Notes: generated by a model from the letters alone, not told the origin. Numbered from the stretch's first letter, positions 8,751 through 64,000 are shown. The stretch: 64,000 nt of DNA from Methylocella sp. (GCA_035515355.1 DATJBL010000064.1:2269-66268), one strand, 5' to 3'. Numbers and translations: made by a program.

Positions 8751-9815
8751 ATGACAGACAAGAATGGCCTCACCTATGCCAGTGCTGGCGTCGATATCGA
8801 TGCAGGCAATGCAATGGTCGAAAAAATCAAGCCGATCGTGCGGGCGACGAGACGGCGCGGTGCCGATGCCGAAATTGGCGGCTTCGGAGGCGTTTTCGAT
8901 CTTAAGGCGGCAGGCTTTCGCGATCCGCTCCTTGTTGCCGCTAATGATGGGGTCGGCACCAAGGTCAAAATCGCAATCGACACCGGCATACACGATATGA
9001 TTGGGATCGATCTCGTCGCCATGTGCGTCAACGACCTCGTCGTGCAAGGCGCCGAGCCGCTTTTCTTTCTCGATTATTACGCGACCGCAAAACTCGATCC
9101 CGAGGCTGCGGCGCGAGTCATCGGCGGGATTGCGCGGGGGTGTATCGAGGCCGGAGCTGCGCTGATTGGCGGCGAGACGGCCGAGATGCCTGGACTTTAT
9201 GCCGGGGCTGACTACGATCTTGCTGGCTTTGCCGTCGGCGCGGTGGAGCGTGATAAGCTTCTTCCGAGAGGGGACATCAAGGCCGGCGATGTGATCTTTG
9301 GCCTCGCCTCCTCCGGCCTCCATTCCAATGGATTTTCGCTGGTTCGGAAAATCGTCGCCCAAGCGTCGCTCGCCTGGATGGCCTCGGCGCCCTTCGAGAC
9401 CGGAAAGTCTCTGGCGGAGGCATTGCTCGCCCCGACCCGCATCTACGTGAAGCCAATTCTCCGGGTGCTGGCCGAGACAGAGGGCATCAAGGGGTTGGCG
9501 CATATCACCGGGGGCGGCTTTCCTGAGAATATCCCCCGAGTTCTGCCAGCAGACCTTGGGGCCCGTATCGATGTTGCGGCGATCCCCGTTCAAGCCGTCT
9601 TCCGATGGCTCGCGGCGGCGGGCGGTATTCGCCAGAACGAAATGCTGCGCACCTTCAACTGCGGCATTGGAATGGTTGTGATCGCCGGCTCTGACAAGGG
9701 CGGCGAGGTTTCCCGCGCCCTCCGCGCTGCCGGCGAGGATCCGGTTCTGCTTGGCGAAATCGTCCCCTGCGGGGCCAGCGAGCGGCTCATCCTTTCTGGG
9801 CGGCTCGGATTGTGA
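8751..9815 (+). CDS. purM: phosphoribosylformylglycinamidine cyclo-ligase (AIR synthetase)
   Basis: Full-length PurM-like sequence ([12 protein letters not shown] ... [10 protein letters not shown] ... HITGGGF). Confidence 0.95.
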
Positions 9816-19442: not shown

Positions 19443-19459
19443 CCGTGCGCAAGGCTAGA

Positions 19460-19846
19460 GTGCCAGCCGGCCTGTAAGCCGGGTTTTGTATGGCGCGCGG
19501 ACGTTGCCGCGCGCGTGACGGCCATTCCTCTGGGACGGCCGTTGCCGGCCGCCTCGAGCAACCAACCCGGGCGACGATCCGGAGACGGATCTAAGGATTT
19601 CTCGGGTGAGAAACGCCTTGTGTCGCCCCTATTCGGTTTTGCTCCCGGTGGGGCTTGCCGTGCCGCTCATGTTGCCATGCGCGCGGTGCGCTCTTACCGC
19701 ACCTTTTCACCCTTGCCTTGCGGCGGTCTGTTTTCTGTGGCGCTTTCCCTAGGGTTGCCCCCGCCGGAAGTTATCCGGCACCGTGTCTCCGTGGAGCCCG
19801 GACTTTCCTCCGCTAGGATCGCGGCGGCCATCCGGCCGGCTGACCA
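19460..19846 (-). ncRNA. rnpB: RNase P RNA, bacterial type A
   Basis: The minus strand contains the universal motifs GAGGAAAGUCCGGGCUCC, ACAGAAAACAGACCGCC, GGUAAGAGCGCACC and ACAAAACCCGGCUUA. P1 pairing is CAGCCGGCC (5') with GGCCGGCUG (3'). Length is about 385 nt; ends are approximate. Confidence 0.93.
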
Positions 19847-22432: not shown

Positions 22433-25400
22433 CTAGGTAGGAGTTTCCGGAACGGCGCCCGAAACACGCGGGAATAGCCGGCGCCATTGCCTTTTTCCCC
22501 ACAGCCGGAACCGGTCGAGGTAGAGATAGAGAACGGGCGTGGTGTAAAGGGTCAAGAGCTGGCTGACAATCAGCCCGCCGACGATCGCGATCCCGAGCGG
22601 GCGCCTGATCTCGCCGCCATCGCCGAAACTGAGCGCCAGCGGTATGGCACCGAAGATCGCGGCGAATGTTGTCATCATGATCGGCCGGAAGCGCAAGAGG
22701 CAGGCGCGAAAGATTGCATCACGCGGCGAAAGCCCTTCGGAGCGTTCCGCTTCAAGCGCGAAGTCGATCATCATGATCGCGTTCTTCTTGACGATGCCGA
22801 TCAGCAAAATCACCCCGATCATCGCGATGATGCTGAACTCCGTGTGAAACAGCAAAAGCGCAAGGACGGCGCCGACGCCGGCGGAGGGCAGCGTTGAAAG
22901 AATGGTGACCGGATGGACGAAGCTCTCGTAAAGGATTCCTAAAACGATGTAGATCGTCGCAAGCGCGGCGATGATCAGAAAGCGTTCGTTCGCAAGCGAC
23001 TGCTCGAAGGCGCGGGCGGTGCCCTGAAGACCGCCATGAATCGTTTGGGGCGGCTGAAGCTTTTTCATCGTCTGATCGATCTCGTTCGCCGCATCGCCCA
23101 ACGATGTACCGAGAGGGAGATTGAAGGAGATCGTGCTCGCGACGAAGAGGCCCTGATGGTTGACCGCCAAAGGTGTGTGGCCCGGGCCAATATGAGTAAA
23201 GGCGGCAAGCGGAATCATCGTTTCCTGCGAGGTGCTGACCGCCGCGCCCGCCGAAGTGCCTTGCCGGCCGGTGTTGGCGAGTGCGTTGGTTTGGGCATTG
23301 CGCGCCTCTTGCCCTGCCGCCGCTGTGGCCTGGCCGGAGGCGACTGCCAGCGTTCCCGGCGCGGGGAGGGGAGCGCTCTGCGATACCGTCCCCGCCACGG
23401 CATTGGTCGTTGCCGTGCCATTCGGGCTGGCGCCAACGGTGCTGACATAAAGATCCTTCAGGATCGAAGGATCTTGCCAATAACGCGGGTCGACTTCCAT
23501 CACGACGTGATATTGGTTGACGGCGCTGTAGATTGTCGAGACTTGGCGCTGGCCGAATGCATCATAGAGCGTATTGTCGATCTGGCTCATGACGAGGCCG
23601 AGACGGGACGCCGTGTCGCGGTCGACGGTAACGTCAGTCTCAAGGCCTTTCTGCTGCTGATCTGAATTGACATCTTTGAGGATGGAGCTGTCTTGCAACG
23701 CCTTAAGGAGGCGGGGCTCGAAGGCATAAAGCTCGGCCGTGTCGTCGCCTTCCAACGTATATTGGTATTGCGCATTACTGAGCCGTCCGCCCATTCTGAT
23801 GTCCTGTACCGACTGCAGATAAAGGCGCGCCCCAGCGACCTGAGCGAGCTTGCCGCGCAGGCGGTCAATCACTTCGTCCGATGTTTCGCGGCGCTGGGCT
23901 GGGGGTTTGAGGTCGATATAGACCAGTCCGGCATTGGTGCCACCTGCTCCTGCTCCTGTATATCCCTTGACGGTGGCGACCGCCGGATCGCTTTGCACAA
24001 TGGCCTGAAGCTGCGCGAGCTTTTTCTGCATCGCTTGGAACGAGATCGACTGATCGGCTTGAATGCTGCCGATGATACGGCTGGTGTCTTGCTGCGGAAA
24101 AAAGCCTTTTGGTATGACCTTAAACAGGACCACGTTGAGGCACACGGTCGCAAACAAAACAAGCATGACGAGGCCGCCATGGCGCAGCGCGACGTTGAGC
24201 GTTCGTTCATAGCCACGCAGAATCTTGGCGAACGGATCAAACCGGCGCCTCGCAACCTCGCCGGGCCTCGGCCGCAGAAACAGCGCGCACATCATGGGCG
24301 TTGCGGTCAAGGAGAGGGAGAGCGAGACAAGGATCGCAACCGAAAGAGTGACAGCGAATTCGCGGAACAGTCGGCCGATAATCCCGCCCATGAAAAGAAT
24401 TGGAATGAACACCGCAATGAGAGAGATGCTGATCGACAGCACCGTGAACCCCACTTCTCCCGCACCAATAAGGGCAGCCTCGATGCGTCCTCTCCCTTCC
24501 TCGAGGTGGCGCGCAATGTTTTCTTGAACCACAATCGCATCATCGACTACGAAGCCCGTCGCGATGGTCAGAGCCATGAGAGACAAATTGTTCAGGCTGA
24601 AGTTCAAGAGATACATCACACCGAAGGTGCCGATGATCGAAACAGGCACCGCGATGCTTGGAATGATCGCGGCGTGGATATCGCGCAGGAACAAAAACAC
24701 AATCAGCGTGACGAGAAGAACCGCTGTCACCAAAGTCCATTCGGTATCATGCAAGGAAGCACGGATCGTATTGCTGCGGTCGTTGGCCTGCGAGAACACG
24801 ATATCGCTCGGCAACGCCGCTTGGAGATGCGGCAATTCGGCCTTCACGCGCTCGACTGCATCAATAATATTCGCGCCCGGCTGACGAAATATAATGACGA
24901 AAACCGCCGGCTTGCCGTCAGAGAGGCCCTCATTGCGAACGTCCTCGACCGAATCCAACACTTCAGCAACGTCGGTAAGATGGACGGGGGCACCATTGCG
25001 GTAGGCGATGACGAGAGGTTTGTAGTCAGCCGCTTTGGTCGCTTGATCGTTGGTGTAGATTTGGAAATGCCTAGCATCGTCTTCAATCGCGCCCTTTGGG
25101 CTGTTGGCGTTGGCCGACGCCAGCGCCGCGCGCACGTCCTCAAGCCCAATGCCGTACTTCGACAAGGCATGCGGGTTGAGCTCCACGCGCACCCCCGGCA
25201 AAGCGGCGCCGCCGATGACAACCTGACCTATGCCGTCAAGCTGGGAAATCCTTTGCTGCAGGATGTTTGAGGCGTAATCATACATCTGGCCGCGTGTCTT
25301 GGTCTTCGATGTCATCGTGAGGATGAGAATCGGTGCATCGGCCGGGTTGATTTTGCGGTAGGTGGGATTCGTCGGCAGATTCGTCGGGAGGTCGGCAAGC

Positions 25401-25744
25401 GAAGCATTTATTGCCGCCTCGACATCGCGCGCGGCGCCGTCGATGTCGCGATCAAGATCGAACTGAAGGATGATCCGGGTCTGACCGAGGCTGCTTGACG
25501 AGGTCATCTCGGTGACATGGGCAATCTGACCGAGATGCCGCTCAAGAGGGCTTGCAAGGCTTGCCGCCACCGTGTCCGGGCTCGCGCCGGGAAGCTGCGC
25601 CTGTACTAAGATCGTCGGAAAATCGACTTGCGGAAGTGGCGAGACCGGCAGGTGCAGAAAAGCAAGGCACCCCGCCAGCGCGATCCCGAAGGTCAAGAGG
25701 GTCGTTGCGACCGGACGCGCGATAAAAGGTGCCGAGAGGTTCAT
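22433..25744 (-). CDS. mdtC: multidrug efflux RND permease, MdtC-like
   Basis: N-terminus ([11 protein letters not shown] ... [22 protein letters not shown] ... [27 protein letters not shown]) closely parallels E. coli MdtC. It is the second of two tandem RND genes. 1,103 aa, with a low-complexity insertion. Confidence 0.9.
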
Positions 25745-28700
25745 CCCTGTGGTGCCTCGCCAGCGGCCATCGGAGGCCTATTGGGGCGCCGCCCTCTCAA
25801 CCGTAGCGCCAAGCGATCGAAATAGAGGTAAATCACCGGGGTGGTGAAAAGCGTCAGGACCTGGCTCACGATGAGTCCACCGACGATGGCGATGCCGAGC
25901 GGATTGCGGAGTTCCGAGCCGGTGCCGGCTCCAAGCATCAAGGGCAACGCGCCGAGGATCGCCGCGAAGGTGGTCATCAAGATCGGACGAAAGCGCAAAA
26001 GACACGCTTGGTAGATGGCTTCACGTGGAGCCATCCCTTCGGAGCGCTCGGCATCGAGCGCGAAATCGATCATAAGGATCGCGTTTTTCTTCACGATGCC
26101 GATGAGGAGGATAATTCCAATGATCGCGATGACATCGAGATCATGGCCGGATGCCATTAACGCGAGGAGCGCGCCGACTCCCGCCGAGGGCAAGGTCGAG
26201 AGAATCGTGATGGGATGAATGAAGCTCTCGTAAAGCACGCCAAGCACAATATACATCGTGACCACTGCGGCGATGATTAAAAAAAGCTCATTCGTCAAGG
26301 ATGCACGGAACGCCGCGGCTGCACCCTGGAAGGATGTCACGAAACTCGCGGGGAGCCCGAGTTCTTGCTCGGTCTTTTCGATTGCCGCCACCGCGGCGCC
26401 GAGCGAGGCGCCTGGGGCGGGATTGAAGGAAATCGCCGTTGCTGGAAATTGCGAAAGATGGGTAATCAGCAAAGGTCCTTCGCGTTCCTGCACCTGGACA
26501 ACCGCCGAAAACGGAACCTGGCCATTGCTGGAGGAGGACGAGGATGGCAGGTAAAATGAGGAAAGGCTGGAGAGCGCGCGCTGCAAGGCTGGATCGGCTT
26601 CCATAATGACGCGGTATTGGTTCGACTGCGTGTAGATCGTCGAGATGATGCGCTGACCAAAAGAGTCATAAAGCGCATTATCGACGCTGCCCGGGGTAAT
26701 TCCAAACCGGGCGGCGGTTTTGCGGTCAATCGTGAGGTCGACCGCAAGACCCTTGTTCTGCATGTCGCTTGCGACGTCGCGAAGCTCCGGTTGCTTTCCG
26801 AGCGCTTGCACAAGCTTCGGCACCCAGATGTCGAGAGCGGCGGGGTTGGCGTCCTGCAAGATAAAGCGATATTGGGCGCGGCTGATGCTGGAATCAATTG
26901 TAAGGTCCTGAACCGGCTGCATGTAAAGCGAGACTCCGGCAATTCTAGAGACCTCTTTCTGAAGGCGCCGGACGACTTCGCTGGCGGTGAGCTGCCGCTC
27001 GGATCTGGGCTTCAGATTGATCAGAAATCTGCCGCCGCTCAGGGTTGTGTTGTCACCGTCGATGCCAATGAACGAACTTACGTTTTCGACCGCCGGATCC
27101 CGCAGGATGACATCCGTGAGCTGGCGCTGATACTTGGCCATCGCCTCGAAGGAAACACTCTGCGGGGCTTCCGTGATCGCCTGAATCATGCCGGTGTCTT
27201 GCACCGGGAAAAATCCCTTTGGAATCACGATGTAGAGGACCACTGTCAGGCCAAGCGTCGCAACCGCGACAAAAAGTGTGAGGGGCTGATGCCGCAGCAC
27301 GACCTCGAGGGCGCGGCCGTAATGCCTAATCAGTTCATTGAAGGCCCTCTCGGACGCAAGATCAAAGCGGTTGCGCGCGGCGTCCGGCCGGTGCCGGATC
27401 AGGCGCGCGCAGAGCATGGGGACCAATGTGAGCGACACAATCGCCGAGATCACGATCGTGACAGCCAGCGTGACCGCGAATTCGTGAAAAATCCGGCCTG
27501 CCACATCACCCATGAACAGCAGCGGAATAAGAACCGCGATCAAGGATACGGTGAGCGAAACGATGGTAAAACCGATCTGCCCGGAACCTTTCAGGGCTGC
27601 CTCCAAAGGAGGATCCCCCGCCTCGACATAGCGTGCGATGTTCTCGATCATGACAATCGCATCATCGACGACGAAGCCCGTCGAGATCGTCAAAGCCATG
27701 AGTGAAAGATTGTCGAGACTGAATCCCAGCATGTACATCGCGGCGAAGGTGCCGACGAGGGATAAGGGGACGGAAAGGCTTGGAATGATGGTCGCGGGCA
27801 GGTTCCGCAGAAACACAAAGATTACCAAGACGACCAGGGCCACCGCAAGCGCGAGCTCGAACTCAACGTCTTCCACGGATGCGCGGATGGTGGTCGTGCG
27901 GTCGCTCAGCACCGCGACATCTGCTGCGGGCGGCAGACTCGCCACGATTGTCGGCAGCAAGCGTTTGATCGAGTCAACCACGGCAATGACATTTGCCCCT
28001 GGCTGACGTCGGATGCTGAGAATGATCGCCGGAGTGGTATTGGCCAAGGCGCCGAGCTTATCGTTTTCTGCGCCCGCAGTGGCGGTGGCAACGTCCGAAA
28101 GCCGGACGGGAGCGCCATTACGGTAGGCAATCACGAGGTCGTTGTAGGCGGAGGCGCTGTTCATTTGATCGTTGTCATTGATCGTCGATGCCTGCGCCGG
28201 ACCGTCAAAGCTGCCCTTTGGCAGATTGACGTTGTCATTGCTGATCGTCGTTCGAAGATCATCTATGTTAAGGCCGTAGGCGGCGAGCGCGGCGGGATTG
28301 AACTTGATCCGTACCGCCGGTCTCTGGCCGCCGCTAATCGTTACAAGACCGACGCCTGGCTGTTGTGACAGCTTTTGCGCGAGCCGCGTCTCGCTGATGT
28401 CCTCAAGCTCGGTTAAAGGCAAGGTCTTTGAGGTGACTGAAAGCGTCATGATCGGCGCGTCAGCCGGGTTGATCTTGGCATAGATGGGGGGCGCAGGTAG
28501 GCCACTTGGGAGGAGGTTGTTGGCAGCGTTGATCGCGGCCTGAACCTCTTGTTCGGCGACATCGAGACTTATGCTGAGGCTGAACTGCAGAGTTATGACT
28601 GAAGCCCCTGCTGAACTTGCCGACGTCATTTGATTGAGACCCGGCATCTGTCCCAATTGCCGCTCAAGCGGCGCCGTCACCGAAGAGGTCATCACCTCCG

Positions 28701-51991: not shown

Positions 51992-52110
51992 GTCCTCAAC
52001 CCCCCCTACAGGCGCAAGGGTGTCTTTTAAGCCTCTACACGCCTATCGCGAATCCCGCTTGACCTGCACGCTGAGATAAGTCTTCCCCTTCGAGCGTTCT
52101 ACAATCCAGG

Positions 52111-52144
52111 AAAAAAACCCGACAGGGCGGGGTTTCACCCTTTT
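52111..52144. terminator. hairpin flanked by an A7 tract and T-rich sequence (possible bidirectional terminator)
   Basis: aaaaaaaCCCGacagggCGGGGtttcaccctttt. On the minus strand the stem is followed directly by TTTTTTT. On the plus strand it lies about 120 nt after the DUF779 gene. Confidence 0.4.
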
Positions 52145-52389
52145 GTCTGATGCGCTTAATCAACCATGATGCAAAACTGAAACCTAAATCAGAAACGGTT
52201 CACGGCTGAGCTGCAGCTTGACTTTAATTTTGTGTCGGTAATGTTGCGATCAAATTCGCAAACATTTTGATATCGTTTTTTAGATCGTCCTTTTCTGTGT
52301 GTTTTGTCGCACAATTTCATTCAGAAAATCTGCAACACTCCCGCGCATGCCCCAGGGCTCAACCCCTGTGACAGAGGAATGATCCGGCC

Positions 52390-52584
52390 ATGATTGACCT
52401 CGACGTAAAGATGCCTTCCGAGCGTTTCATCGAAACTATTCAAAAACAGATTGCTCAGCTCGAGGCGTTAGAGACCACAGGCACCGCCACATTGGACACT
52501 TACGAGGTGCTTGCAAATCTCCATGAGCTCCTGGATAAGCTTTATACGATGTTCCTGGAAGTTTCCCGCGAGACGTTCCATTGA
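52390..52584 (+). CDS. hypothetical small helical protein
   Basis: 64-aa ORF with SD AGAGGA upstream in an AT-richer region. No family recognised. An antisense ORF of similar size exists, so coding status is uncertain. Confidence 0.35.
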   Translation: MIDLDVKMPSERFIETIQKQIAQLEALETTGTATLDTYEVLANLHELLDKLYTMFLEVSRETFH

Positions 52585-53458: not shown

Positions 53459-54616
53459 TCAGCGGTCATGGGAACTTTCGCCGGCGACCCAGGTGGCGAG
53501 GACTTCAAGATCTCCGGGACGGAACGCGACAATATCGGCGCGGTATCCTGGAGCGAGCCGGCCAAGAAAATGCCCGAGGCCCAAGAAGTTCGCGGGCTCA
53601 CTCGAGGCGATGGCCAATGCCTGTTCCAATGGCAGACCCAAAAGCTGAATGCAGTTGCGCACCGCGGCTGCCATATTGATTGCCGAACCGGCCAGCGCTC
53701 CCTGCGCTGTCGAGCACCGGCCATCACGGACCGTGATCTTTTGTCCTTGGAGGAAAAATTCCTGTTTGCAACCGCCGACTGGCGGCATCGAATCCGTCAC
53801 GAGCATAGGATGGCCGGTGCCGCCGCGTATTGCGAGCCGAAGCATCGCCGGGGCGACATGTTCGCCATCGACGATCATTCCGTAGAATGCGTTCGGCGAT
53901 TCGAGCGCAGCCGCGATCGGCCCAGGCTCGCGGCTGGAAAGCGGCCGCATCGCGTTGAAGAGATGCGTAAAGCCGGTGAGTCCTTCCGCCATGGCAGCTC
54001 GGGTTTGCAGATAGGTGGCCATGGAATGGCCGAGTGAAACTTTGACCCCCGCGGTGACGAGCTCCGCAATAAAGCCCTGCGGCGTCTCCTCGGGAGCCAG
54101 GGTGACCAGCGACACGCCGTCCCGAAGCCGGGTGAGCATTTGGCGGTGGCGGGGTTCGGGGCGGCGACACAAGTCCGGGCGATGCACCCCGGATTTTTCG
54201 GGCGACAGAAAGGGGCCTTCGAAATGAATCCCAAGCACCCCCGGCTCGCGGGCTATCATCCTCTCGATGGCGCTCAAGGAAGCCGCCATTACTTCGTCGG
54301 TGTCGGTGATCAACGTCGGCAGGAGCGCCGTCGTGCCGAACTTGCGGTGGGCACGGACAATCTTCGAGATGCCTTCTGGCGTCGGATCGGCATTGAATAA
54401 AACGTCGCCTCCACCGTTGACTTGAACATCAATGAAGCCAGGCGCCAGCCATGCACCGGGAGGCAATTTGAATGTTTCACCAAACGCAGACATTTGGCTG
54501 CGCGGCATGAGCGCCCCGATTCGGGACCCTTCGATCACTACGACGCTGTCGCGGTGGGTCACCGCACCATCGAAGATGAAGTCCGCGGCAATCGCGTGTC
54601 GATCACAGCCGCTCAT
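53459..54616 (-). CDS. nagA: N-acetylglucosamine-6-phosphate deacetylase
   Basis: GFIDVQVNGGGDVLFN, HFEGPFLSPEK and HLFNAM motifs. ATG 54616 overlaps the stop of the upstream SIS gene (ATGA). Confidence 0.9.
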   Translation of the reverse strand: MSGCDRHAIAADFIFDGAVTHRDSVVVIEGSRIGALMPRSQMSAFGETFKLPPGAWLAPGFIDVQVNGGGDVLFNADPTPEGISKIVRAHRKFGTTALLPTLITDTDEVMAASLSAIERMIAREPGVLGIHFEGPFLSPEKSGVHRPDLCRRPEPRHRQMLTRLRDGVSLVTLAPEETPQGFIAELVTAGVKVSLGHSMATYLQTRAAMAEGLTGFTHLFNAMRPLSSREPGPIAAALESPNAFYGMIVDGEHVAPAMLRLAIRGGTGHPMLVTDSMPPVGGCKQEFFLQGQKITVRDGRCSTAQGALAGSAINMAAAVRNCIQLLGLPLEQALAIASSEPANFLGLGHFLGRLAPGYRADIVAFRPGDLEVLATWVAGESSHDR

Positions 54617-55671
54617 CGCGTATGTGTAATTTTCTGCAAGTGACGGGGCTGATCTGCGTCCGTTCCTCGCGCAGCAGATAGACGCACGACCATGGCATAG
54701 AAGCTTTGGATGAGACAAATCGGATCGGTTTCGGGATGATCGGGGGGAAGCGCCGCGAGCCTATTTGGCGTCGTATCATCCATGTCGGTGGTAAACACAG
54801 CTGCTTCCATTTTCCTCAGGTCGTCGGCCAGTTGCCTCATGCTCGTGCTCGCGGCATCGGTCGGCATGAACATCAGAATTGGATAACCTGAAGACACCAG
54901 GGAGATAGGCCCATGTTGGAACTCGGCGCCACTAAAAGCTTCTGCATGGAGATTGGACGTTTCCTTCAATTTCAGCGCCGCCTCTCGCGCAATAGCCAGC
55001 GTCGGGCCTCGCCCAATCGTAACGAGGCTCTCCGCTCCGCTGATATGCTCCACCAGATGGCTCCAATCCAGTTTGCAGGAGGCCGCAAGGCGCTCCGGCA
55101 ATCTTTGCAACGCTGCAGCGAACGCCTCATCCTCGGCCCACAATGCTGTCAGATGCGCCAGAGCCGAAAGCGATGCAATGAAAGTTTTCGTCGCGGGCAC
55201 ACTGAGCTCGGGCCCGGCCGCCATTGGCAAGATAAATTCACAGTTTTGCGCGAGCTCGCTGCCAGTGTCGTTCGTGATGCACGCTGTCACCGCGCCGCAA
55301 GCGCGGGCCGCTGCAGCCTGCTCGATCAGATCGCCACTCATTCCGGATTGCGAAATTGCCAAGAATAGTTGGTCGGCCAAGCACAGCCGCTTTCGGTAAA
55401 CGCTCGCGATGTTCGGTGCCGCTGCCGCGACCGGAATGCCAAGATACCGCTCGATCAAATGCTTCCCGAAGGTCGCCGCATGCGCGGAACTGCCGCGCGC
55501 GCAAGTCACGACCACCTGTGGTGGCTTGTGCCTCAGTCGCGCGACCAATGGAGTCAGATTGGGCGGAAGAATCTGCTCCTGCCGCTTCACGGCTTCTGGA
55601 GCCGCTTTCAATTCGGCACTCATTTGGACGTCGAGCATCATCATCGGATGCTTTACTGTCTGCTGCGTCAC
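54613..55671 (-). CDS. SIS-domain sugar-phosphate isomerase/deaminase (GlmS-C-terminal-like, NagB-II type)
   Basis: Two SIS domains (VVTCARGSSAHAATF ... AISQSGMSGDL ...; TIGRGPTLAIAREAALKLKET ... AEAFSGAEFQHGP). Translationally coupled to nagA. The start is uncertain (several in-frame ATG/GTG codons at 55621-55671). Confidence 0.8.
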   Translation of the reverse strand: MTQQTVKHPMMMLDVQMSAELKAAPEAVKRQEQILPPNLTPLVARLRHKPPQVVVTCARGSSAHAATFGKHLIERYLGIPVAAAAPNIASVYRKRLCLADQLFLAISQSGMSGDLIEQAAAARACGAVTACITNDTGSELAQNCEFILPMAAGPELSVPATKTFIASLSALAHLTALWAEDEAFAAALQRLPERLAASCKLDWSHLVEHISGAESLVTIGRGPTLAIAREAALKLKETSNLHAEAFSGAEFQHGPISLVSSGYPILMFMPTDAASTSMRQLADDLRKMEAAVFTTDMDDTTPNRLAALPPDHPETDPICLIQSFYAMVVRLSAARGTDADQPRHLQKITHTR

Positions 55672-55846
55672 GCCACGTCAATCATCTCACAAAGGTGTGG
55701 GTGAGGCGAGCGGCAAATGCACTGCCGTCGTGTGAGGGCGAAGGACACTCCTGGTTGCGCTTCTATTTGTAATCAGGAGAACCCAACTGGATCGAATGCG
55801 TTTCGCTCTAGCGACGCGTTCGAAAATGACCGCTCAGAGGCTCCTC

Positions 55847-56809
55847 ATGGAAACGGAACGCCCAAGCCCCCGCTATTCCAGGATCGATCTTTGGGAACCA
55901 TCGGAGATCCTGGAAGCGATGATCGAGGGGCAATTTTCAGCCGTCGCTGCCGTGCGAGCCGCACGCCCGGCGATTGAGCGGGCGGCAGTCGCGATCGTGC
56001 GCCGATTAAGCGGCCCCGGACGACTCATTTATGTGGGAGCTGGAACGTCCGGCCGTTTGGCCGTCCAGGACGGGGCGGAACTGATGCCGACGTTTAGCTG
56101 GCCCCAGGACCGACTTTTGCTTCTGGTGGCCGGTGGGAAAGATGCTCTTCTACGAGCGGTCGAAGGCGCCGAGGATCAGGTTGGGCGCGCCGTCGAACTG
56201 GTGCGTCAGCATGGCGTGAACGCGGCTGATGTCATGATTGCGGTAGCGGCGAGCGGGACGACGCCATTTACGGTGGCGTGCTTGCGCGAAGCAAAACGAG
56301 CAGGCGCTCTTACGATCGGCCTTGCGAACAATCGAGAGACCCCGCTTCTGCAGGAAGCCGATCATTCAATCTTCCTCGATACGGGCCCGGAGCCGATCGC
56401 CGGTTCGACTCGGATGAAAGCCGGAACGGCCCAGCGGACTGCCCTGATCTTGCTCTCCTCGCTCGTCATGATTCTCTTCGGCCGGGTCTATGAGGGCCTG
56501 ATGGTGGACGTGCAGGCCTCCAACAAGAAGCTGATCCAAAGAAGTGAAAAGATATTATCGCGGTTGAGCGGCCGCAGCAGCGAGGAAATCTACGACGCTT
56601 TGCACCGAGCCGGAGGGAGCGTCAAGCTCGCCTTTCTCCTTCTGCAAGGTTTTAGCTTGAACGAGGCTGAGACTGCTCTCGATCGCACCCACGGTCACCT
56701 CCGCCGAGCAATGAGTTTGATCGCCGATCTTCGGTCCCCGGCTCCTGATCGCGGCGACACACGTCATGCTGCGAGCGCCGGCTCCGGGGAGCGCGGCACC
56801 CCCGAATAG
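55847..56809 (+). CDS. murQ: N-acetylmuramic acid 6-phosphate etherase
   Basis: METERPSPRYSRIDLW ... YVGAGTSGRLAVQDGAEL ... VAASGTTPF ... GSTRMKAGTAQ. SD AGAGG lies 6 nt before ATG 55847; the ORF is open from 55796. Confidence 0.88.
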   Translation: METERPSPRYSRIDLWEPSEILEAMIEGQFSAVAAVRAARPAIERAAVAIVRRLSGPGRLIYVGAGTSGRLAVQDGAELMPTFSWPQDRLLLLVAGGKDALLRAVEGAEDQVGRAVELVRQHGVNAADVMIAVAASGTTPFTVACLREAKRAGALTIGLANNRETPLLQEADHSIFLDTGPEPIAGSTRMKAGTAQRTALILLSSLVMILFGRVYEGLMVDVQASNKKLIQRSEKILSRLSGRSSEEIYDALHRAGGSVKLAFLLLQGFSLNEAETALDRTHGHLRRAMSLIADLRSPAPDRGDTRHAASAGSGERGTPE

Positions 56810-57828: not shown

Positions 57829-58176
57829 CTAAGCGATGAAGGCGTTTGCGAAGAAACTAGTTGCACTGCATAGAAATACGCGCGTCACCATCCGGCAGAG
57901 GGTGCCTGCGAGCGCAAGCAGCTTTTGCCCGGTCCCATTCTTCTGTCCCTCCGGTCCTAGTTCGCATCGCCAAAGCATTTTCTCTGGGTCACATTCATCG
58001 ATCACAAGTGCGATCCCATTCTCCGGCCCATGGGTGAGGAGCCGTTCGAGCACTTCTATTCTTTGTTTATCGCCGGGTATTCCCGCGCCGAGTCTCACCA
58101 TCTCTTTCAGTTCGGCAAGTTCTCGCCGCAGCCGTCTCGTATCCTTGGCGACGCTGATGGTCTCAAGTCCATTCAT
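57829..58176 (-). CDS. hypothetical protein, divergent from the RiPP precursor gene
   Basis: SD GGAGGTG lies 4 nt before ATG 58176 (MNGLETISVAKDTRRLRRELAELKEMV ...). 115 aa. No family recognised. Confidence 0.45.
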   Translation of the reverse strand: MNGLETISVAKDTRRLRRELAELKEMVRLGAGIPGDKQRIEVLERLLTHGPENGIALVIDECDPEKMLWRCELGPEGQKNGTGQKLLALAGTLCRMVTRVFLCSATSFFANAFIA

Positions 58177-58651
58177 GGCCACCTCCACTCCCTCGCGAGC
58201 TTCGAAGCCTGCGTCGGGTAAAATTACCGCCGCTCTCGCGGCAAGCCAGGGCGCCAGCCTGAATTTGGTTGACTATTATTAGTTTTCAATGCAATAACGT
58301 CCTACAATATATTATTAATCATTTACGCGGAGAGAATGCGCTAGACCCATTTGAGTTATGGCAATCAAACAGCGCATCCGCCTCGTTGTGGCGGCAGACG
58401 GCGACCGCGACGATGATGGTTGAATATAGGTCGCGTACTGGAAGGTTTAAGCTATAAGCTGGTGACATGCCGTGGCGTCAACAACCTAGCGGGCATCCCC
58501 AGCAGGCTGAAAATAACTCGATTTGCGAGGGAGGCGGTCACCCATCGGCCGTGCTTGGTGCTGGTGCTGTTCAAAGCATACGAAAAGTGTTACCGATATA
58601 GTCCGGTTGGTCGCGCATTTGTTCGATGGAAGCTAGAGGAGGAACTCTGCT

Positions 58652-59152
58652 ATGTCGCAAACGAAGCGTGCTTCGCAGGGGAAGCGTCCAAGTAAAGCTG
58701 CATCCGTGCTGGGAATGGCCGGGGCTTCTCTGGCAGCATCGACCAGCGGATCAATAGCCGATTTGTCGGTGACGGATATACCGTCGCAGAACACGGTACC
58801 GTTTCAGGTTATTCTCGGCGAAGAGGAAATTTCCGACGTCAGCCTGGCGACGTTCCATGTCTTCGACAAGGAAGACCTCGGAGCACTGGGGTCAGGGATA
58901 CAACTTGCTGCTCGAGGAGGCTGTGGCTGCGGCGGGCATGGCTGTGGCGGCTGCGGACACGGCTGTGGCGGCTGCGGACACGGCGGCTGGGGCGGTAGAG
59001 GCTGCTTTGCACACGGCTGCGGACGCGGCTGCGGTAGAGGCGGTTTTGGTAGAGGCTGCGGCTGTGGCTGGGGAGGCTGCGGCGGCTGCGGCTGGGGGTA
59101 TGGCTGGGGCGGCTGCTGCTTGTCATGGGGAGGTTGTTCCCCCTGGTGTTAG
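58652..59152 (+). CDS. Cys/Gly-rich RiPP precursor peptide (TOMM / linear azole-containing peptide type)
   Basis: Strong SD GAGGAGGA lies 9 nt before the ATG. The 166 aa comprise a 90-aa leader-like region and a 76-aa C-terminus with 17 Cys and about 50% Gly (CGCGGHGCGGCGHGCGGCGH ... GGCCLSWGGCSPWC). It sits immediately upstream of the cyclodehydratase and dehydrogenase genes. Confidence 0.8.
   Translation: MSQTKRASQGKRPSKAASVLGMAGASLAASTSGSIADLSVTDIPSQNTVPFQVILGEEEISDVSLATFHVFDKEDLGALGSGIQLAARGGCGCGGHGCGGCGHGCGGCGHGGWGGRGCFAHGCGRGCGRGGFGRGCGCGWGGCGGCGWGYGWGGCCLSWGGCSPWC
58940..58981 (+). repeat. exact 21-nt tandem duplication inside the precursor core (encodes GCGGCGH x2)
   Basis: ggctgtggcggctgcggacac at 58940-58960 is repeated exactly at 58961-58981. 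The surrounding sequence is a degenerate GGC/TGC/GGN periodic tract. Confidence 0.9.
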
Positions 59153-59252
59153 CCGAGCGGGGGCGATCAGTTTCGGCCCTGCGAATGGCGTCTTGTTTGC
59201 AGTGGTGCGCAGGTGATGCGCCCTTCAGGCGTGCACATGGCGGCCGAGTGAA

Positions 59253-59311
59253 CCACCAAGCTTAATCAGGAAACGCTCGATTCAGAAAAAGCTAACGTGC
59301 GAGCTTGGTGG
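59253..59311 (+). repeat. 10-bp perfect inverted repeat between the precursor and cyclodehydratase genes (possible processing or attenuation stem)
   Basis: ccaccaagct (59253-59262) ... agcttggtgg (59302-59311), with 39 nt enclosed. Confidence 0.5.
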
Positions 59312-59385
59312 CGGAGGGCTAGCAACCGGAGAATGCGCCTTGCAATGGCGTCCGGAGTTGTGACGAAGGTGCACGTACTGACCTA

Positions 59386-61647
59386 ATGACAGGCGATCAC
59401 GGAAACAGCTTTACGCGGCATAATGGCAAAGACGTTCCGCGGTTCGCGCCGAATTTCACTGTCTATGTGCTACCACCCAATATCGTGTGCCTCTATTCTG
59501 AGGACCGGAAGTTCTTGCTTCACGGCGAGCTTTATTGCGCACTCGCCTCCGCGATAGGTGAGGGTGGAAAGAGCTTTCGGGAACTTGTTCGCGAGCTGGA
59601 ACAGGATTTTCCATCCGACAAAATCCACGAAGCCCTGAAGCGGCTGGTCGACCGACGCTATATTCTTCCAGCATCGCGCTCTTCGAATGGCACTGTTGCC
59701 GCCTATTGGGCGAGCCTCGGCCTGTCGCCGGAGATCGCGGAGCGAAATCTCCAGAAATGTCGGGTGCGCGTTCAATCGATCGACGTGGAGGGAGCAACGG
59801 AACTCGGGGCCGCCCTGAGTTGGCTCGGCGTTCGCGTCGTCAAGCGCTCCCCCGACCTGACGGTGACGTTGGTAAATGATTATCTCGAGGGGCGACTGCC
59901 GGAATTGAACCGGCAGCATTTGTCGGACCGCACGCCCTGGGTGCTCGTCCAACCCTCTGGCATTTTTCCCCTGGTGGGGCCGGTGTTCAGACCGGGGCAG
60001 GGCGCCTGCTGGATGTGTCTTGCCGAACGGATGAAAAGGAACCGGGAGGTCAAGGCGCTCCTTGACCGCAAACAGGCCCGCTGCCTCACCGTTTCCCCTT
60101 TGGCTCGGCGCCCCTTTGGAGAGAGTGCCATCCAACTTGCGGCCGTCGAGGTCGCGAAAGCGATCGCCACCGATTTTCGCACGCAATTGTCTGATCACAT
60201 CATCAGTCTTGATCTGTTGGGCTCGACCATCGTGAAGCACCACGTGGCGGCCCGCCCGCAATGTCCGAGCTGCGGTCACAAGAAGCTGCGCGATCCCCGC
60301 CGTGCACCAGTCCCGGTCGAGCTTGGCGTAGGTGGCAAGGTCGTCATGACGAGCGGGGGATACCGAAGCGTTTCGCCATCGGCCACGGTTTCGCGTTTCC
60401 GCAAGCACGTGAGCCCCTTGACCGGCGTGGTCTCGCACCTCGAGAGGATTCAAGCCGATTTGCCCTTGAACACCAACTACTATGCCAAGCACAATTTTTC
60501 GGGGCTGGCCGAGACGGTCAATGAACTTAGGGTAGGGCTGAGCAGCGGCAGCTTCGGCAAGGGCAGCACCGCCGAGCAGGGGGAAGCTAGCGCCCTCATG
60601 GAGGCGATTGAGCGCTATTCCGGAATCTTTCAGGGCGACGAGATCAGAGCAAAGCGGCGGTTTACCGATTTCTCGTCGGGCGAGGCCATTTCTCCGAACA
60701 AAGTCCTGCTGTTCAGCGAGGCGCAATTGCGGCGAGGCCGGGCGCCGACGCCCGGCTCGGACGATTGGGAGGCGATCCCGGCGCTATTCGATCGATCGGC
60801 TGAAATCGAGTGGTCGCCAGTCTGGTCTTTGCGTGACGAACGCTTCAAATATCTTCCGACCAGCCTGTTGTATTTTTTCTACAGAGGCCCTGCCGCCTTC
60901 GCAGCAGATTCCAACGGCTGTGCGGCCGGCAACACGCTCGAGGAGGCAATCGTCCAGGGATTCCTTGAGCTGGTGGAACGGGATGCATACGCCATCTGGT
61001 GGTACGATCGATCGCAGCGGCCGGAATTGGACCTCGATCAGTTCGACGATTCCTACGTCCGCGATCTGCGAAACAAGCTGGCCGAAACCGGCCGCCGGCT
61101 TTGGGTGCTCGACGTCACCAGCGATCTCGGGATTCCGACATTTGTGGCGATAACGCACTGGATGCAAAACGGGCGCGAAAATATCGAATTCGGTTCCGGC
61201 GCCCATTTCGATGCGCGAATCGCCTTGTTGCGTACATTGACGGAGCTTAATCAGTTTCTATCCCTGGGTCTCATGAGCGGTGGGACTGGGGAGAAATCGA
61301 GCCTTGATGGCATCGCTCCATTGCGCCTGCAGGACCATCCCTATTTGACTCCGAGCGGAAATCCGCTGGTCCGACCGGACTTCGGCTCGAAGTTTGGCCA
61401 TTTCGACACGCGCGAGCAGGTGACGGCCTGCGTGCGCCTCGCCAAGCAAGCGGGCCACGATTTCCTCGTCCTCGATCAGACGCGTCCCGACATCGAGGTT
61501 CCGGTCGTCAGAGTAATCGTTCCAGGATTGCGGCATTTCTATCGCCGTTTCGCGCCTGGCCGGCTTTACAATGTGCCGGTAAAGCTCGGATTGCGTGACC
61601 AGCCGCTCAAAGAAAACGAGCTCAATCCGATTCACCCCCATACTTGA
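59386..61647 (+). CDS. fused TOMM cyclodehydratase: leader-binding (RRE) / E1-like domain plus YcaO domain
   Basis: The N-terminal ~320 aa carry a winged-helix-like segment (LHGELYCALASAIGEGGKSFRELVRELEQDFPSDKIHEALKRLVDRRYIL) and paired CxxC motifs (CWMC ... CPSC). The C-terminal ~420 aa are YcaO-like (GKGSTAEQGEASALMEAIERYSG ... SNGCAAGNTLEEAIVQGFLELVERD ... GIPTFVA). Confidence 0.85.
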   Translation: MTGDHGNSFTRHNGKDVPRFAPNFTVYVLPPNIVCLYSEDRKFLLHGELYCALASAIGEGGKSFRELVRELEQDFPSDKIHEALKRLVDRRYILPASRSSNGTVAAYWASLGLSPEIAERNLQKCRVRVQSIDVEGATELGAALSWLGVRVVKRSPDLTVTLVNDYLEGRLPELNRQHLSDRTPWVLVQPSGIFPLVGPVFRPGQGACWMCLAERMKRNREVKALLDRKQARCLTVSPLARRPFGESAIQLAAVEVAKAIATDFRTQLSDHIISLDLLGSTIVKHHVAARPQCPSCGHKKLRDPRRAPVPVELGVGGKVVMTSGGYRSVSPSATVSRFRKHVSPLTGVVSHLERIQADLPLNTNYYAKHNFSGLAETVNELRVGLSSGSFGKGSTAEQGEASALMEAIERYSGIFQGDEIRAKRRFTDFSSGEAISPNKVLLFSEAQLRRGRAPTPGSDDWEAIPALFDRSAEIEWSPVWSLRDERFKYLPTSLLYFFYRGPAAFAADSNGCAAGNTLEEAIVQGFLELVERDAYAIWWYDRSQRPELDLDQFDDSYVRDLRNKLAETGRRLWVLDVTSDLGIPTFVAITHWMQNGRENIEFGSGAHFDARIALLRTLTELNQFLSLGLMSGGTGEKSSLDGIAPLRLQDHPYLTPSGNPLVRPDFGSKFGHFDTREQVTACVRLAKQAGHDFLVLDQTRPDIEVPVVRVIVPGLRHFYRRFAPGRLYNVPVKLGLRDQPLKENELNPIHPHT

Positions 61648-63121
61648 AGGTGATCTCGGCTTGCGCGCTCCCGAACCAAAGAGAGTGCGTCGGGCCGCGT
61701 CGGCGACCATTTCCGCCCGGCTCGGTGGTCGCGTCACGCTCGAAACGCACGCGACTGGAGAAATCATCGCCTGCTTCGATGGCTATTCGGTCGGCTTGGG
61801 AATGTTCAGCGCCAGCGCGGCGGATCGGGCGCGGGATCTGCGCACGGGTCTTCCACTCGCCTCATTTGTGGGCAGCCGCCGGAACATTGACAAAGAGATT
61901 GATCTTTTGGTCCGGCGATTGGCCAGCCGCGGTCTGTTGGAATACCGCCTTGGGGGCTCGCGCAATGGAGAGGACCTGCTCGTCATCGAACCGCAGGTTC
62001 CCGATTATTGGCCGCGAACGCCGCAGCTCGGCAACTCAGACGCTCTCGTCTTGTCACGGTTCGCGTACCTTCGACGGCGCGGTAACGAGATGGTCCTGGA
62101 ATCGCCGCGCGCCGGCGCCTTGTTCAAAATTTGCGATCCGAAGATTGCGGCCACCTTGGCCATGCTCTCTACTCCGCAACAAATCAAACAGCTGCGTCGG
62201 CTGGATGGTTTTCCAGGGGTCGAGCTTCTTGGCCTGCTCCTTGATTGCCAAATCGTTTTCAAGATCGACGTCGCCGGTGAAAGTGGCCTTCGACCGGCCG
62301 AGGGTGACCACAACCTCGTTCTTTGGGACTTTCACGATCTTCTATTCCACACGCGCAGCACGGAAGGCCGGCACGCCAACCCGCTGGGCGGAGTTTATCC
62401 GTATGCCGGCGTCATTTCTCCGCTGCCGGCGGTGCGGCCCCGCTGGCCCGGAAAAAAAATCGATCTGCGCAAGTTCTTGGCCGCTCATCCAGCGGCAATC
62501 TCGCCGGTCGCAAAGCTTCTGCGGGAGCGTCGTTCGACGCGTAGCTTTGATGACCACCGACCGATCACGCTCGCCGAGCTTTCGGCGTTTCTCGACGGCA
62601 CCGCGCGGGTCCTGTCGACCGCGAGCAGCGAGCCCGGCCACGACGACGGCGGTCACACCGTCAGACCATATCCGTCGGCGGGCGGCAGCTACGAGCTCGA
62701 GCTCTATCTAGCGGTCGACAAATGCGAGGGACTTGCACGAGGCTTCTATCATTACGATGCCAGCGCCCACGCATTGGTACCGATCGGCGTTTCCCCGCAT
62801 GAGCTCGAAGTGCAGTTGATGGGAGGCGAATATTCAACGGGTGCACCCGCTGCGCCCCAGATCTTGATCACGATCGCTGCGCGCTTTGGCCGGATTTCAT
62901 GGAAGTACAGCTCGATCGCCTATTCGCTCATTTTGAAGGACGTCGGTGTATTAATGCAAACGCTCTACCTAATGGCGACCGACATGGGGCTCGGCGGCTG
63001 TGCGATCGGGATCACGAATATCGATCTGTTCTCAAAGATGACGGGGATCGAATTCCATGTCGAGGGCCCTGTCGGTCAATTTGCGATCGGCCGCGGCGTG
63101 AAAACGGGGGCTTCCGACTGA
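61595..63121 (+). CDS. SagB/ThcOx-type FMN-dependent dehydrogenase (azoline oxidase)
   Basis: Nitroreductase-fold motifs LRERRSTRSF, RPYPSAGGSYELELYL, GFYHYDASAHALV and LKDVGVLMQTLYLMATDMGLGGCAIG. GTG 61595 overlaps the YcaO gene end by 53 nt. An alternative GTG lies at 61685. Confidence 0.85.
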   Translation: MTSRSKKTSSIRFTPILEGDLGLRAPEPKRVRRAASATISARLGGRVTLETHATGEIIACFDGYSVGLGMFSASAADRARDLRTGLPLASFVGSRRNIDKEIDLLVRRLASRGLLEYRLGGSRNGEDLLVIEPQVPDYWPRTPQLGNSDALVLSRFAYLRRRGNEMVLESPRAGALFKICDPKIAATLAMLSTPQQIKQLRRLDGFPGVELLGLLLDCQIVFKIDVAGESGLRPAEGDHNLVLWDFHDLLFHTRSTEGRHANPLGGVYPYAGVISPLPAVRPRWPGKKIDLRKFLAAHPAAISPVAKLLRERRSTRSFDDHRPITLAELSAFLDGTARVLSTASSEPGHDDGGHTVRPYPSAGGSYELELYLAVDKCEGLARGFYHYDASAHALVPIGVSPHELEVQLMGGEYSTGAPAAPQILITIAARFGRISWKYSSIAYSLILKDVGVLMQTLYLMATDMGLGGCAIGITNIDLFSKMTGIEFHVEGPVGQFAIGRGVKTGASD

Positions 63122-63199: not shown

Positions 63200-64000
63200 T
63201 TAATCTGCAGGGTTCCCGGCTTTGCCAAGACCCCGCGCATCGGAGGGATCGTGCGATGCGTCGCGCACGAAATACCCAATAGCTTTGCGAATGCGCCTAT
63301 CCAGCAGCGCGAATATGGCGCCTTGAGGGTCCGTGCAATGGACGATCCAAGCGCCGCCGGGTACTGCAGTCGGGCCATAGAGAATTTGGCCGCCGCCGGC
63401 CTCCACGCGCTTTGCCGCCGCCTCAATGTTGCCAATGTTGAAATAGTAAAGCCAGAAGGGAAGCGGCAACGTCGGAGGCTTCGTGAACATGCCGCCGATC
63501 GTCTCCCCTCCAGCGGAGAACTGCTGATACGTGCCCATCGCGCCGACTTGGGCATTCGCTTTTTGCCAGCCAAATACCTCGCCGTAGAAAGCGAACGCCT
63601 TCTCCCAGTCGGCGGCGAGCAACTCATGCCAGCCTACACGCCCCGGTGTGCCCAGCGCGGCGGACTTCTCTTGGCCCGGTTTCAGCCCTTTGACCAACGC
63701 AAGCGTTGCCATCTGCGGGTCGGCAACGACCGAAAAGCGGCTGATGTTGGGGACATCCATCGGTGGGACCTGCACCACTCCGCCAAGCTGCTTAGTCCGG
63801 TCGACGGCAGCGTCCACGTCGTCGACTCCGACATATCCAACCCAGTGCGGCATCACGCCCGTTCTCCTCGCGTCCTCCGGCAGGTTCATCAGCCCGGTGA
63901 CGGGAGTGTCTCCAACGGTAAACAGGCTATAAGTGAAGCCAGGCATCGAGGCATCGCGCGTACCCCAGCCCACGAGATTGGCGTAGAAGGCCTTGGCGGC
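63200..64000 (-). CDS. two-domain VOC (glyoxalase / bleomycin-resistance fold) family protein; 5' end beyond the window
   Basis: The frame stays open to base 64000 (... AAKAFYANLVGWGTRDASMPGFTYSLF ...). Two repeated halves each carry a W-x-E/H ... FY ... FGW pattern typical of VOC proteins. Confidence 0.8.
   Translation of the reverse strand, partial: AAKAFYANLVGWGTRDASMPGFTYSLFTVGDTPVTGLMNLPEDARRTGVMPHWVGYVGVDDVDAAVDRTKQLGGVVQVPPMDVPNISRFSVVADPQMATLALVKGLKPGQEKSAALGTPGRVGWHELLAADWEKAFAFYGEVFGWQKANAQVGAMGTYQQFSAGGETIGGMFTKPPTLPLPFWLYYFNIGNIEAAAKRVEAGGGQILYGPTAVPGGAWIVHCTDPQGAIFALLDRRIRKAIGYFVRDASHDPSDARGLGKAGNPAD

Follow-up and report, generated by a model that had tools for sequence, protein, structure and literature searches.

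A 64-kb stretch of Methylocella sp. DNA (the window, meaning the whole stretch that was analysed) contains a compact gene cluster that, judged from its sequence, is likely a self-contained four-gene cassette with a large poly-thiazole peptide as its predicted product. The product would be a ribosomally made peptide with post-translational modifications (RiPP) of the thiazole/oxazole-modified microcin (TOMM) or linear azol(in)e-containing peptide (LAP) type, made via cyanobactin-type enzymes and carrying up to 17 predicted thiazoles. Three co-directional open reading frames (ORFs) on the plus strand (58652-59152, 59386-61647 and 61595-63121) had been picked out in an earlier sequence-only reading, and all three are present; they encode a Cys-rich precursor peptide, a fused heterocyclase and a flavin mononucleotide (FMN) oxidase. 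The three-gene unit of that reading needs enlarging, as the conserved unit comprises four genes, a gene for a two-domain protein of the vicinal oxygen chelate (VOC) fold being added wherever the flanks suffice. The enzymatic half of the locus is real but ordinary and of a well-known type, and the biosynthetic logic of the cassette is that of an ordinary TOMM/LAP. The precursor family, on the other hand, is large, found in soil bacteria and named in no database. To describe the locus as an undescribed system goes too far, as the enzymes are already annotated by NCBI as TOMM proteins and stand near solved cyanobactin enzymes.

The heterocyclase and the oxidase

The testable features of a TOMM/LAP locus are present in the window: a YcaO domain with an E1-like part and a RiPP recognition element (RRE), a SagB-type dehydrogenase, and an adjacent Cys-rich precursor in which the core follows a leader. 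The second gene (59386-61647, plus strand) encodes a fused heterocyclase of 753 aa, composed of a winged-helix/RRE part, an E1-like domain with CxxC...CxxC and a YcaO domain, as delimited by domain matches and by alignment with LynD. The winged helix PF21084 covers residues 21-93 (25.7 bits, cut-off 24.1), the TOMM leader-binding/E1-like model TIGR03882 covers residues 183-349 (143.1 bits, cut-off 36.9), and the YcaO models PF02624/TIGR03604 cover residues 391-751 (TIGR03604 235.9 bits, cut-off 219.25; PF02624 E 2.5e-93). Residues 19-749 align with LynD (4V1T) at E 2.4e-153, and TruD and MusD follow at E 1.5e-145 and 2.6e-141, respectively. The LynD alignment spans both CxxC pairs and the GKG.T..Q..AS.L.EA.ERYSG block, and the CWMC, CPSC and GKGSTAEQGEASALMEAIERYSG strings align with the equivalent LynD residues. 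The protein has an NCBI record (HUI21064.1, 'TOMM precursor leader peptide-binding protein [Methylocella sp.]'). On plasmids, heterocyclase identity is 80% in Methylovirgula and then drops to about 40% in Thalassospira and cyanobacteria (cyanobacterial homologues about 37-40%), so that the heterocyclase forms a clade of its own.

The third gene (61661-63121, plus strand) encodes a ThcOx/SagB-type FMN azoline oxidase that, from its domains and the starts of its homologues, is probably 486 aa long (508 aa when read from GTG 61595). In the 508-aa numbering, PF22767 (ThcOx) covers residues 151-260 and PF00881/TIGR03605 (SagB) covers residues 325-500, with 172.9 bits for TIGR03605 (cut-off 78.4) and 83 bits for PF00881 (cut-off 23.5). 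Residues 132-500, with the RFGR..WKY..IAYSLILK block among them, match CyaGox-type oxidases (8PZ5, 5LQ4) at E ~8e-56. The motifs previously quoted for the two enzymes were all found in their translations, and the earlier assignment of the locus to the azole-peptide TOMM/LAP type, in which the C/D cyclodehydratase is fused and the dehydrogenase is SagB-type, stands, with the enzyme domains above curated cut-offs. That assignment hung on matches to YcaO and SagB profile hidden Markov models, and both families were matched above their cut-offs.

An overlap of the last two genes, and with it translational coupling, had also been proposed. The 53-nt overlap is conditional on the start codon GTG 61595, which gives the longest ORF. 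Homologues annotated in GenBank/RefSeq start at the equivalent of TTG 61661 (plasmid pHY1 and locus L090) or of GTG 61685 (locus L089); TTG 61661 lies 13 nt past the ORF 2 stop and has a GAAGGTGA Shine-Dalgarno sequence 8-15 nt upstream. Both the overlap and the proposed coupling probably arose from the longest-ORF choice, and the likely oxidase start, from the sequence around it and from the homologues, is TTG 61661. The heterocyclase and oxidase genes are surely tightly packed and co-transcribed.

The precursor peptide of the window

The precursor gene (58652-59152, plus strand) encodes 166 aa, which the ORF, its composition and its homologues divide into a leader (about residues 1-90) and a Gly/Cys-rich core (residues 91-166, 58922-59149). 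The last 76 residues contain 17 Cys, 37 Gly (49%), 6 Trp, 4 His and 4 Arg, in line with the 17 Cys and roughly 50% Gly noted earlier. A density of at least 7 Cys per 40 residues occurs at just one other spot in all six frames of the window; the core composition is therefore exceptional. The core is encoded by tandem DNA repeats (58919-59120, plus strand, from a repeat search), namely a 21-nt unit in 3.1 copies (58919-58984, the GCGGCGH heptad) and a 27-nt unit in 2.4 copies (59058-59120), and its C-terminus is the conserved motif CCLSWGGCSPWC (59114-59149). Within the leader, residue frequencies place the most conserved block at residues 55-74 (LGEEEISDVSLATFHVFDKE, 58814-58873), and the family-wide layout marks residues 1-33 (58652-58750) as a signal-peptide-like segment. 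The leader is kept in this frame across hundreds of homologues, and ORF 1 is therefore coding. AlphaFold predicts the precursor to be disordered (mean pLDDT 44.6), as is expected for a RiPP substrate. The precursor lies upstream of the heterocyclase gene with a gap of 233 nt, and an exact-sequence contig look-up with the window precursor returned no record.

A large precursor family absent from databases

Precursor homologues number 3443 at E<=1e-3, all unnamed or 'hypothetical'. When 1.84 billion representatives were searched with a profile, 675 clusters (50% identity) came out at E<=1e-10; a genome-collection scan with a single-sequence query returned 3 loci. A Pfam and NCBIfam scan of the precursor gave no family at E<=0.01, in libraries that include NHLP, Nif11, SagA, heterocycloanthracin and PatE models. 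The earlier impression that the leader is unlike known TOMM leaders is thus borne out against the NHLP, Nif11, SagA and heterocycloanthracin models. The motifs or a description of the family were not found in the literature searched, and the family goes unmentioned in the text of the 2015 TOMM census. The hosts are Beijerinckiaceae, Xanthobacteraceae and Bradyrhizobium; the window subtype occurs in Methylocella, Methylocystis, Methylovirgula and other Beijerinckiaceae, and a branch with Arg-rich cores occurs in Xanthobacteraceae metagenome-assembled genomes (MAGs). The precursor is often left out of RefSeq/GenBank gene calls.

Family members share a layout that runs from a basic N-terminus through an uncharged run, a variable linker, a conserved block and a ..QLAR..-type junction to a hypervariable Cys-rich core. 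The conserved block, LGEEEISDVSLATF(H/Y)VFDKE, has a mean top-residue frequency of 0.89 (67 sequences) and was found in 144 of 150 representatives; by analogy with characterised systems, the corresponding residues 55-74 of the window peptide are presumed to be a putative heterocyclase recognition sequence. In all 66 distinct family sequences the N-terminus carries a net charge of +4 to +9 before the hydrophobic stretch. In the same set, an uncharged Ala/Gly/Ser/Leu run of 17-33 residues (about 20 in the window peptide) begins near residue 15, with a maximum Kyte-Doolittle value over 11 residues of 1.4-2.4, and most members continue with GGASA or ASA. The mean top-residue frequency is 0.70 in the N-terminal segment versus about 0.5 in the linkers.

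The cores are hypervariable and repeat-built, with the number of repeat units varying among homologues. They average 31% Gly, 16% Cys and 12% Arg, with Ser at 3.8% and Thr at 1.7%; this scarcity of Ser and Thr leaves Cys as essentially the sole cyclisable residue. The highest Cys count in any of 142 family cores is 21, compared with 17 in the window core. The close subfamily keeps a CCxSWGxCxxC-type C-terminal motif without variation, and among 150 diverse representatives the motif can be recognised in 30.

Damaged copies were also encountered. Many members (e.g., P0132, P0168, P0180 and P0192) have frameshifted cores with Ala/Glu-rich tails that correspond to an alternative frame of the GGC/TGC repeats, and in a long-read MAG locus (L003, 3-4465) the heterocyclase and oxidase are broken into pieces as well; these cases reflect either assembly errors in repetitive GC-rich DNA or true decay. 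Another locus (L001, 8001-9008) has a degenerate precursor tail followed by two short heterocyclase remnants (57% and 67% identity), one of them inverted, and looks like a decayed cassette copy.

Gene linkage and orphan precursors

The order precursor-heterocyclase-oxidase was recovered in 34 of the 52 loci that were scorable, i.e., that had enough downstream DNA, with precursors 39-78% identical. The cassette is also found on plasmid pHY1 of a cultured strain, Methylovirgula sp. HY1, where it lies at 23374-28604 of NZ_CP073765.1. All-against-all ORF clustering of 24 long loci returned only the four cassette genes, plus alternative-frame shadows, as recurring families; no protease, exporter or immunity pump recurred in this set, and a further conserved transporter or protease was accordingly rejected as a part of the module. 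The flanks of the modules are heterogeneous, often with transposases.

In the remaining 18 of the 52 scorable loci an enzyme gene is missing from the reachable DNA, and in two loci (L007 and L008) an intact precursor stands beside the VOC gene and enzymes are absent up to 8 kb away. These loci weigh against the cassette as a strictly self-contained modification system, since the peptide might also work unmodified. The neighbours of orphan precursors are unrelated (e.g., transposases, a Hint-domain protein, a Na/Ca exchanger), and the orphans keep the leader block almost unchanged. Additionally, precursor copies with different cores occur in tandem in one locus (L051) and as a second, opposite-strand copy in another (L034). 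Because the orphans retain the leader block and tandem or paired precursors exist, they are, on balance, read as putative extra substrates processed in trans, a reading that the analysis favours with some reservation. The sequence-only reading had given precursors conserved apart from the enzymes as a finding that would count against it, and such precursors do exist (18 of 52, and one on a YcaO-free plasmid); the association nevertheless persists in 34 of 52, and the orphans keep the leader. The plasmid-borne orphan lies on the conjugative plasmid NZ_CP100605.1 of Bradyrhizobium sp. Ash2021 (L094, 8863-9312), where it encodes 149 aa, is annotated as hypothetical and is flanked by IS1182 and IS5 transposases and a group II intron; no YcaO gene was found on this plasmid.

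Several neighbourhoods are of separate note. In a Beijerinckiaceae MAG (GCA_052143715.1; L090, 4465-6536), a bufferin-type cluster, in which an 86-aa ORF is joined by an MNIO enzyme (PF05114) and by a DUF2063/HvfC_N protein (PF09836), lies directly beside the VOC gene of the YcaO module, so that two Cys-modifying RiPP systems stand side by side. On pHY1 (NZ_CP073765.1; L093, 6875-8374 and 14837-18246), a multicopper oxidase gene that diverges from the precursor and the cbb3 oxidase operon ccoNOQP border the module, and the record leaves the pHY1 precursor gene (9001-9474) unannotated. A consistent copper-gene neighbourhood was rejected, as just 2 of about 14 contexts show it, and was kept as a weak lead. 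In two loci of the Xanthobacteraceae branch (L039 and L058, 1471-7901), two AcrB-family RND pump genes on the same strand end 100 nt 5' of the precursor, an arrangement absent from the other loci.

A conserved VOC-fold partner

The fourth gene (63200-64000, minus strand) encodes a two-domain VOC, or glyoxalase-fold, protein whose 5' end lies beyond the window, as recognised from two PF00903 matches and conserved adjacency; the NCBI model of the protein (P0280) has 285 aa. Its best solved relative is Rv0577 of M. tuberculosis (3OXH, E 4.5e-30). The VOC gene adjoins the module in every independent locus with enough flank, in either of two positions. It is convergent and 3' of the oxidase in L002, L003, L004, L012, L017, L039, L043, L058, L067, L069, L089, L090, L092 and pHY1, and divergent and 5' of the precursor in L032, L043, L061, L075, L077, L080 and L084. 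In a reverse check starting from VOC homologues, YcaO and SagB genes were present in all three scorable neighbourhoods (3/3). Since the association outlasts both the change of position and a fall in precursor identity to about 40%, functional linkage is indicated rather than mere synteny.

A putative function for the VOC-fold protein, offered tentatively, is that it binds the peptide or product and thereby shields the producer. Two results speak against this function: the Ble-like N-terminal model PF22677 reached 19.5 bits, under the Pfam cut-off of 24.5, and the AlphaFold model has low confidence (mean pLDDT 44.4), the poor quality of the model being due to a shallow alignment.

Proposed mechanism of maturation

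In the proposed scheme, the precursor of 166 aa would be made as a disordered peptide, and its leader block, LGEEEISDVSLATF(H/Y)VFDKE, would dock on the winged-helix/RRE and E1-like part of the heterocyclase, by analogy with LynD and PatE. The YcaO domain would then, with ATP, cyclodehydrate core Cys residues to thiazolines, as close homology suggests, and the FMN oxidase would convert these thiazolines to thiazoles. The conserved C-terminal Cys-Cys pair could give a 4,2-bisthiazole; McbBCD makes bis-heterocycles at CC sites (PMC6722960). Maturation and release would fall to host machinery, because the cassette encodes no protease or exporter. The leader of microcin B17 is removed by the host protease TldD/E (PMC6722960), and characterised Gram-negative LAPs have dedicated exporters, McbEF and PhzE (PMC6722960, PMC6783444). 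Counting against the docking step, the leader showed no similarity at E<=10 to PatE or any other PDB chain, in a set that holds the PatE chains deposited with LynD, so that docking is argued from analogy. A possible likeness between the leader string LGEEEISD and the string LAELSEEAL of cyanobactin PatE was set aside, as the string is absent from the literature searched and the leader has no PDB match.

The basic, hydrophobic and small-residue segment at the N-terminus may be a Sec-type signal that would route the modified peptide to the periplasm or beyond, a call from sequence that comes close to even while leaning towards doubt. RiPPs that take the Sec route have been described, as 'highly unusual' cases, and those known to date are the MNIO-modified bufferins and oxazolins (PMC12452194). 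Several observations weigh on the doubtful side: Gly and Ser break up the stretch, its hydrophobicity is no more than moderate, its conservation exceeds the usual level for signal peptides, AlphaFold predicts no helix, and the NCBIfam Tat-signal model did not match the precursor.

Possible biological roles

Two main candidates were considered for the role of the product: it may be a toxin used in competition, or it may buffer metals or stress. As a toxin, which is a tentative possibility, the product would be a microcin B17- or phazolicin-like antibiotic directed against related soil Alphaproteobacteria, with the VOC protein conferring immunity by sequestration. The Gly- and azole-rich composition resembles microcin B17 (PMC6722960), the Arg-rich cores resemble cationic LAPs directed at nucleic acids or the ribosome (PMC6722960, PMC6783444), and the conserved CC pair could form a bisthiazole as in McbBCD products (PMC6722960). 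Hypervariable, repeat-driven cores in multiple or orphan copies, one of them on a conjugative plasmid among insertion sequences, fit diversifying selection, and several modules are flanked by transposases. The VOC fold includes known drug-sequestering resistance proteins, and a weak, sub-threshold Ble-like_N match was obtained here, although the closest solved VOC relative is Rv0577 and not a bleomycin-binding protein. Against a toxin, a product with a length of 76 residues or more would have to get through the outer membrane, and a conserved exporter is lacking, unlike McbEF/PhzE of the characterised Gram-negative LAP antibiotics (PMC6722960, PMC6783444). The lack of an exporter would pose no difficulty if the modified peptide were exported by Sec and kept in the periplasm, an end point that would need none. 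There, thiazole N, His and unmodified Cys would chelate copper or another soft metal, making the product a functional counterpart of MNIO-made bufferins, a role considered rather unlikely. Every member examined has a signal-peptide-like N-terminus, His- and Cys-rich cores occur (GHGCGGCGHGC in the window, CHGCHGCHHGC in L037 and L066), the L090 MNIO/DUF2063 cluster and the pHY1 multicopper oxidase with ccoNOQP provide two copper-related contexts, and bufferins set a precedent as Sec-routed copper chelators with Cys-derived heterocycles (PMC12452194). However, the signal peptide is itself putative, the copper link is confined to those 2 of about 14 independent contexts with the remainder unrelated, no metal-regulator box was recognised upstream of the precursor, and the cores are hypervariable, many being Arg-rich without His, in contrast to the fixed Cys motifs of known metal-binding RiPPs.

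A bolder form of the periplasmic role, and an improbable one, is that this is the first YcaO-made azole RiPP with a true Sec signal peptide, acting as a periplasmic poly-thiazole/His/Cys chelator of metal (e.g., copper) or as an electrophile buffer, with the VOC protein as its cytoplasmic handler. If a periplasmic chelator is true, the bufferin strategy would have been reinvented independently on the basis of YcaO, and this version would be spread widely among soil Hyphomicrobiales, relatives of methanotrophs among them. The peptide might instead act largely unmodified, as a secreted or membrane-associated Gly/Cys-rich protein of metallothionein-like kind for which the enzymes are dispensable or touch few residues. 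The 18 of 52 scorable loci that lack enzymes in reach, the intact precursor with VOC gene in L007 and L008, and the orphan-bearing Bradyrhizobium plasmid free of YcaO genes all point this way. Multi-copy precursors with distant enzymes are, however, common in RiPPs, and tandem copies occur here; enzymes lie directly downstream in 34 of the 52, and it is difficult to see why orphans would retain the leader block if the leader were no longer read by an enzyme. An unmodified mode of action is highly improbable.

Upstream region and other features of the window

A region of about 110 nt upstream of the precursor (58540-58651, plus strand; promoter or 5' untranslated region, UTR) is conserved in a nine-locus alignment. 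Conservation climbs towards the ATG, with GGAGGAAC invariant, and a strong Shine-Dalgarno sequence (GAGGAGGAAC, 58636-58645), invariant in related loci, lies 7 nt 5' of the ATG; conserved stretches within the region include CAAAGCGCACGAAAAGTGCTAC and CGCGCATTTGTTCGA. A structured 5' UTR or riboswitch was rejected: the sequence is conserved, yet an Rfam search gave no meaningful match and no covariation-supported fold was found. The region showed no match to a sigma-70 consensus, and it may be an operator or a promoter of unassigned type. A regulatory RNA or attenuator between precursor and heterocyclase was likewise rejected, as the 241-nt region folds like its shuffles (z = -1.21) and has no terminator-like site. 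A 119-aa ORF on the minus strand (57829-58188) was dismissed as a part of the system because no related locus has a homologue.

Elsewhere in the window, a class A bacterial RNase P RNA gene (19459-19843, minus strand, 298 bits) indicates that the contig is chromosomal; no tRNA genes were found in the 64 kb. A cluster for amino-sugar catabolism (53459-56809), which has no relation to the RiPP module, is located immediately upstream of the cassette. It includes a 419-aa ORF (53459-54718) that we take from its sequence to be NagA-like, an ORF (54613-55671) that is presumably SIS-domain-like, and a MurQ/GKRP-like SIS protein (55796-56809, Pfam matches). A local dip in G+C to 0.486, versus about 0.59-0.62 in the surroundings, was observed at 52000-52499.

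Significance

What is new here is an uncatalogued, very large precursor family whose core is unusual in its length and Cys density; the family is common in Alphaproteobacteria of soil and peat, but current annotation misses it. If the predicted modification is true, few known ribosomal peptides would carry as many heterocycles as these products. The conserved VOC-fold partner, the lack of a dedicated protease or exporter and the signal-peptide-like start of the leader set the cassette apart from characterised LAPs. These departures are relevant to the export and tolerance of azole peptides in Gram-negative producers, and to the question of whether YcaO chemistry has been turned to the handling of metals or stress instead of antibiosis. 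The cassette is a good, testable target for genome mining rather than a surprise, unless the Sec-routed or metal-buffer role is true, and its presence on pHY1 in the cultured Methylovirgula sp. HY1 makes it directly testable.

Comparison with known systems

Despite its cyanobactin-type enzymes, the cassette is not a cyanobactin locus, because it has no PatA/PatG and no PatE-type precursor. The heterocyclase shares with LynD and TruD, to which it aligns over its full length, the same winged-helix/RRE part, E1-like domain with a zinc-type CxxC pair and YcaO architecture, and the oxidase has the ThcOx N-terminal and SagB FMN domains of its CyaGox-type matches. Unlike in cyanobactins, no PatA/PatG protease or macrocyclase, no PatB/C-like gene and no adjacent annotated peptidase was present in any locus here. 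The precursor gave no PatE match and lacks core cassettes flanked by recognition sites, its 76-residue Gly/Cys core contrasting with cassettes of 6-8 residues. The hosts are Hyphomicrobiales rather than cyanobacteria, with about 37-40% identity to the cyanobacterial plasmid homologues.

The defining features of the microcin B17, heterocycloanthracin and NHLP/Nif11 families were tested and are lacking, and the cassette therefore lies outside these families. Heterocycloanthracin and NHLP/Nif11 TOMMs resemble it in having a fused cyclodehydratase and long precursors, with Cys repeats in the former and long conserved leaders in the latter (PMC4603692). However, the heterocycloanthracin cyclodehydratase is without the N-terminal leader-binding part and needs an ocin-ThiF-like protein (PMC4603692), whereas here the N-terminal winged helix is intact and no F-protein gene is conserved in the 24 long loci; the NCBIfam precursor models of the three groups did not match the precursor at E<=0.01. 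Microcin B17 of E. coli (mcbABCDEFG) likewise has a Gly-rich core with many azoles and bis-heterocycles at adjacent Cys/Ser, which are predicted here, and its leader protease, TldD/E in E. coli, is encoded outside the cluster (PMC6722960). It differs in its three-protein McbBCD synthase as opposed to the fused C/D protein here (McbC is a distant match to the oxidase, E 2.5e-6) and in its leader of 26 residues as opposed to about 90, and only Cys is cyclisable in the present peptide. Its McbEF exporter and McbG pentapeptide-repeat immunity protein are not conserved in the cassette, which has the VOC-fold partner instead.

In the sequence-only reading, no characterised TOMM product was known from Alphaproteobacteria; this is corrected by phazolicin and trifolitoxin, two ribosomal peptides with azole modifications whose producers are Alphaproteobacteria belonging to the same order (PMC6783444). 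Phazolicin differs from the present system in its separate C, B and D proteins, its exporter PhzE and its short Ser/Thr/Cys core (PMC6783444), and no sequence relationship was detected between the precursors of either peptide and the one described here. Bufferins are made by MNIO and DUF2063 proteins rather than by YcaO and SagB enzymes, and have fixed Cys motifs in place of hypervariable cores; MNIO and DUF2063 genes are not in the module, the L090 cluster being a separate unit. Bufferins and oxazolins nonetheless share with the cassette a Cys-rich precursor, a signal-type N-terminus (putative here), Cys-derived heterocycles (predicted here) and a compact, exporter-free cluster (PMC12452194).

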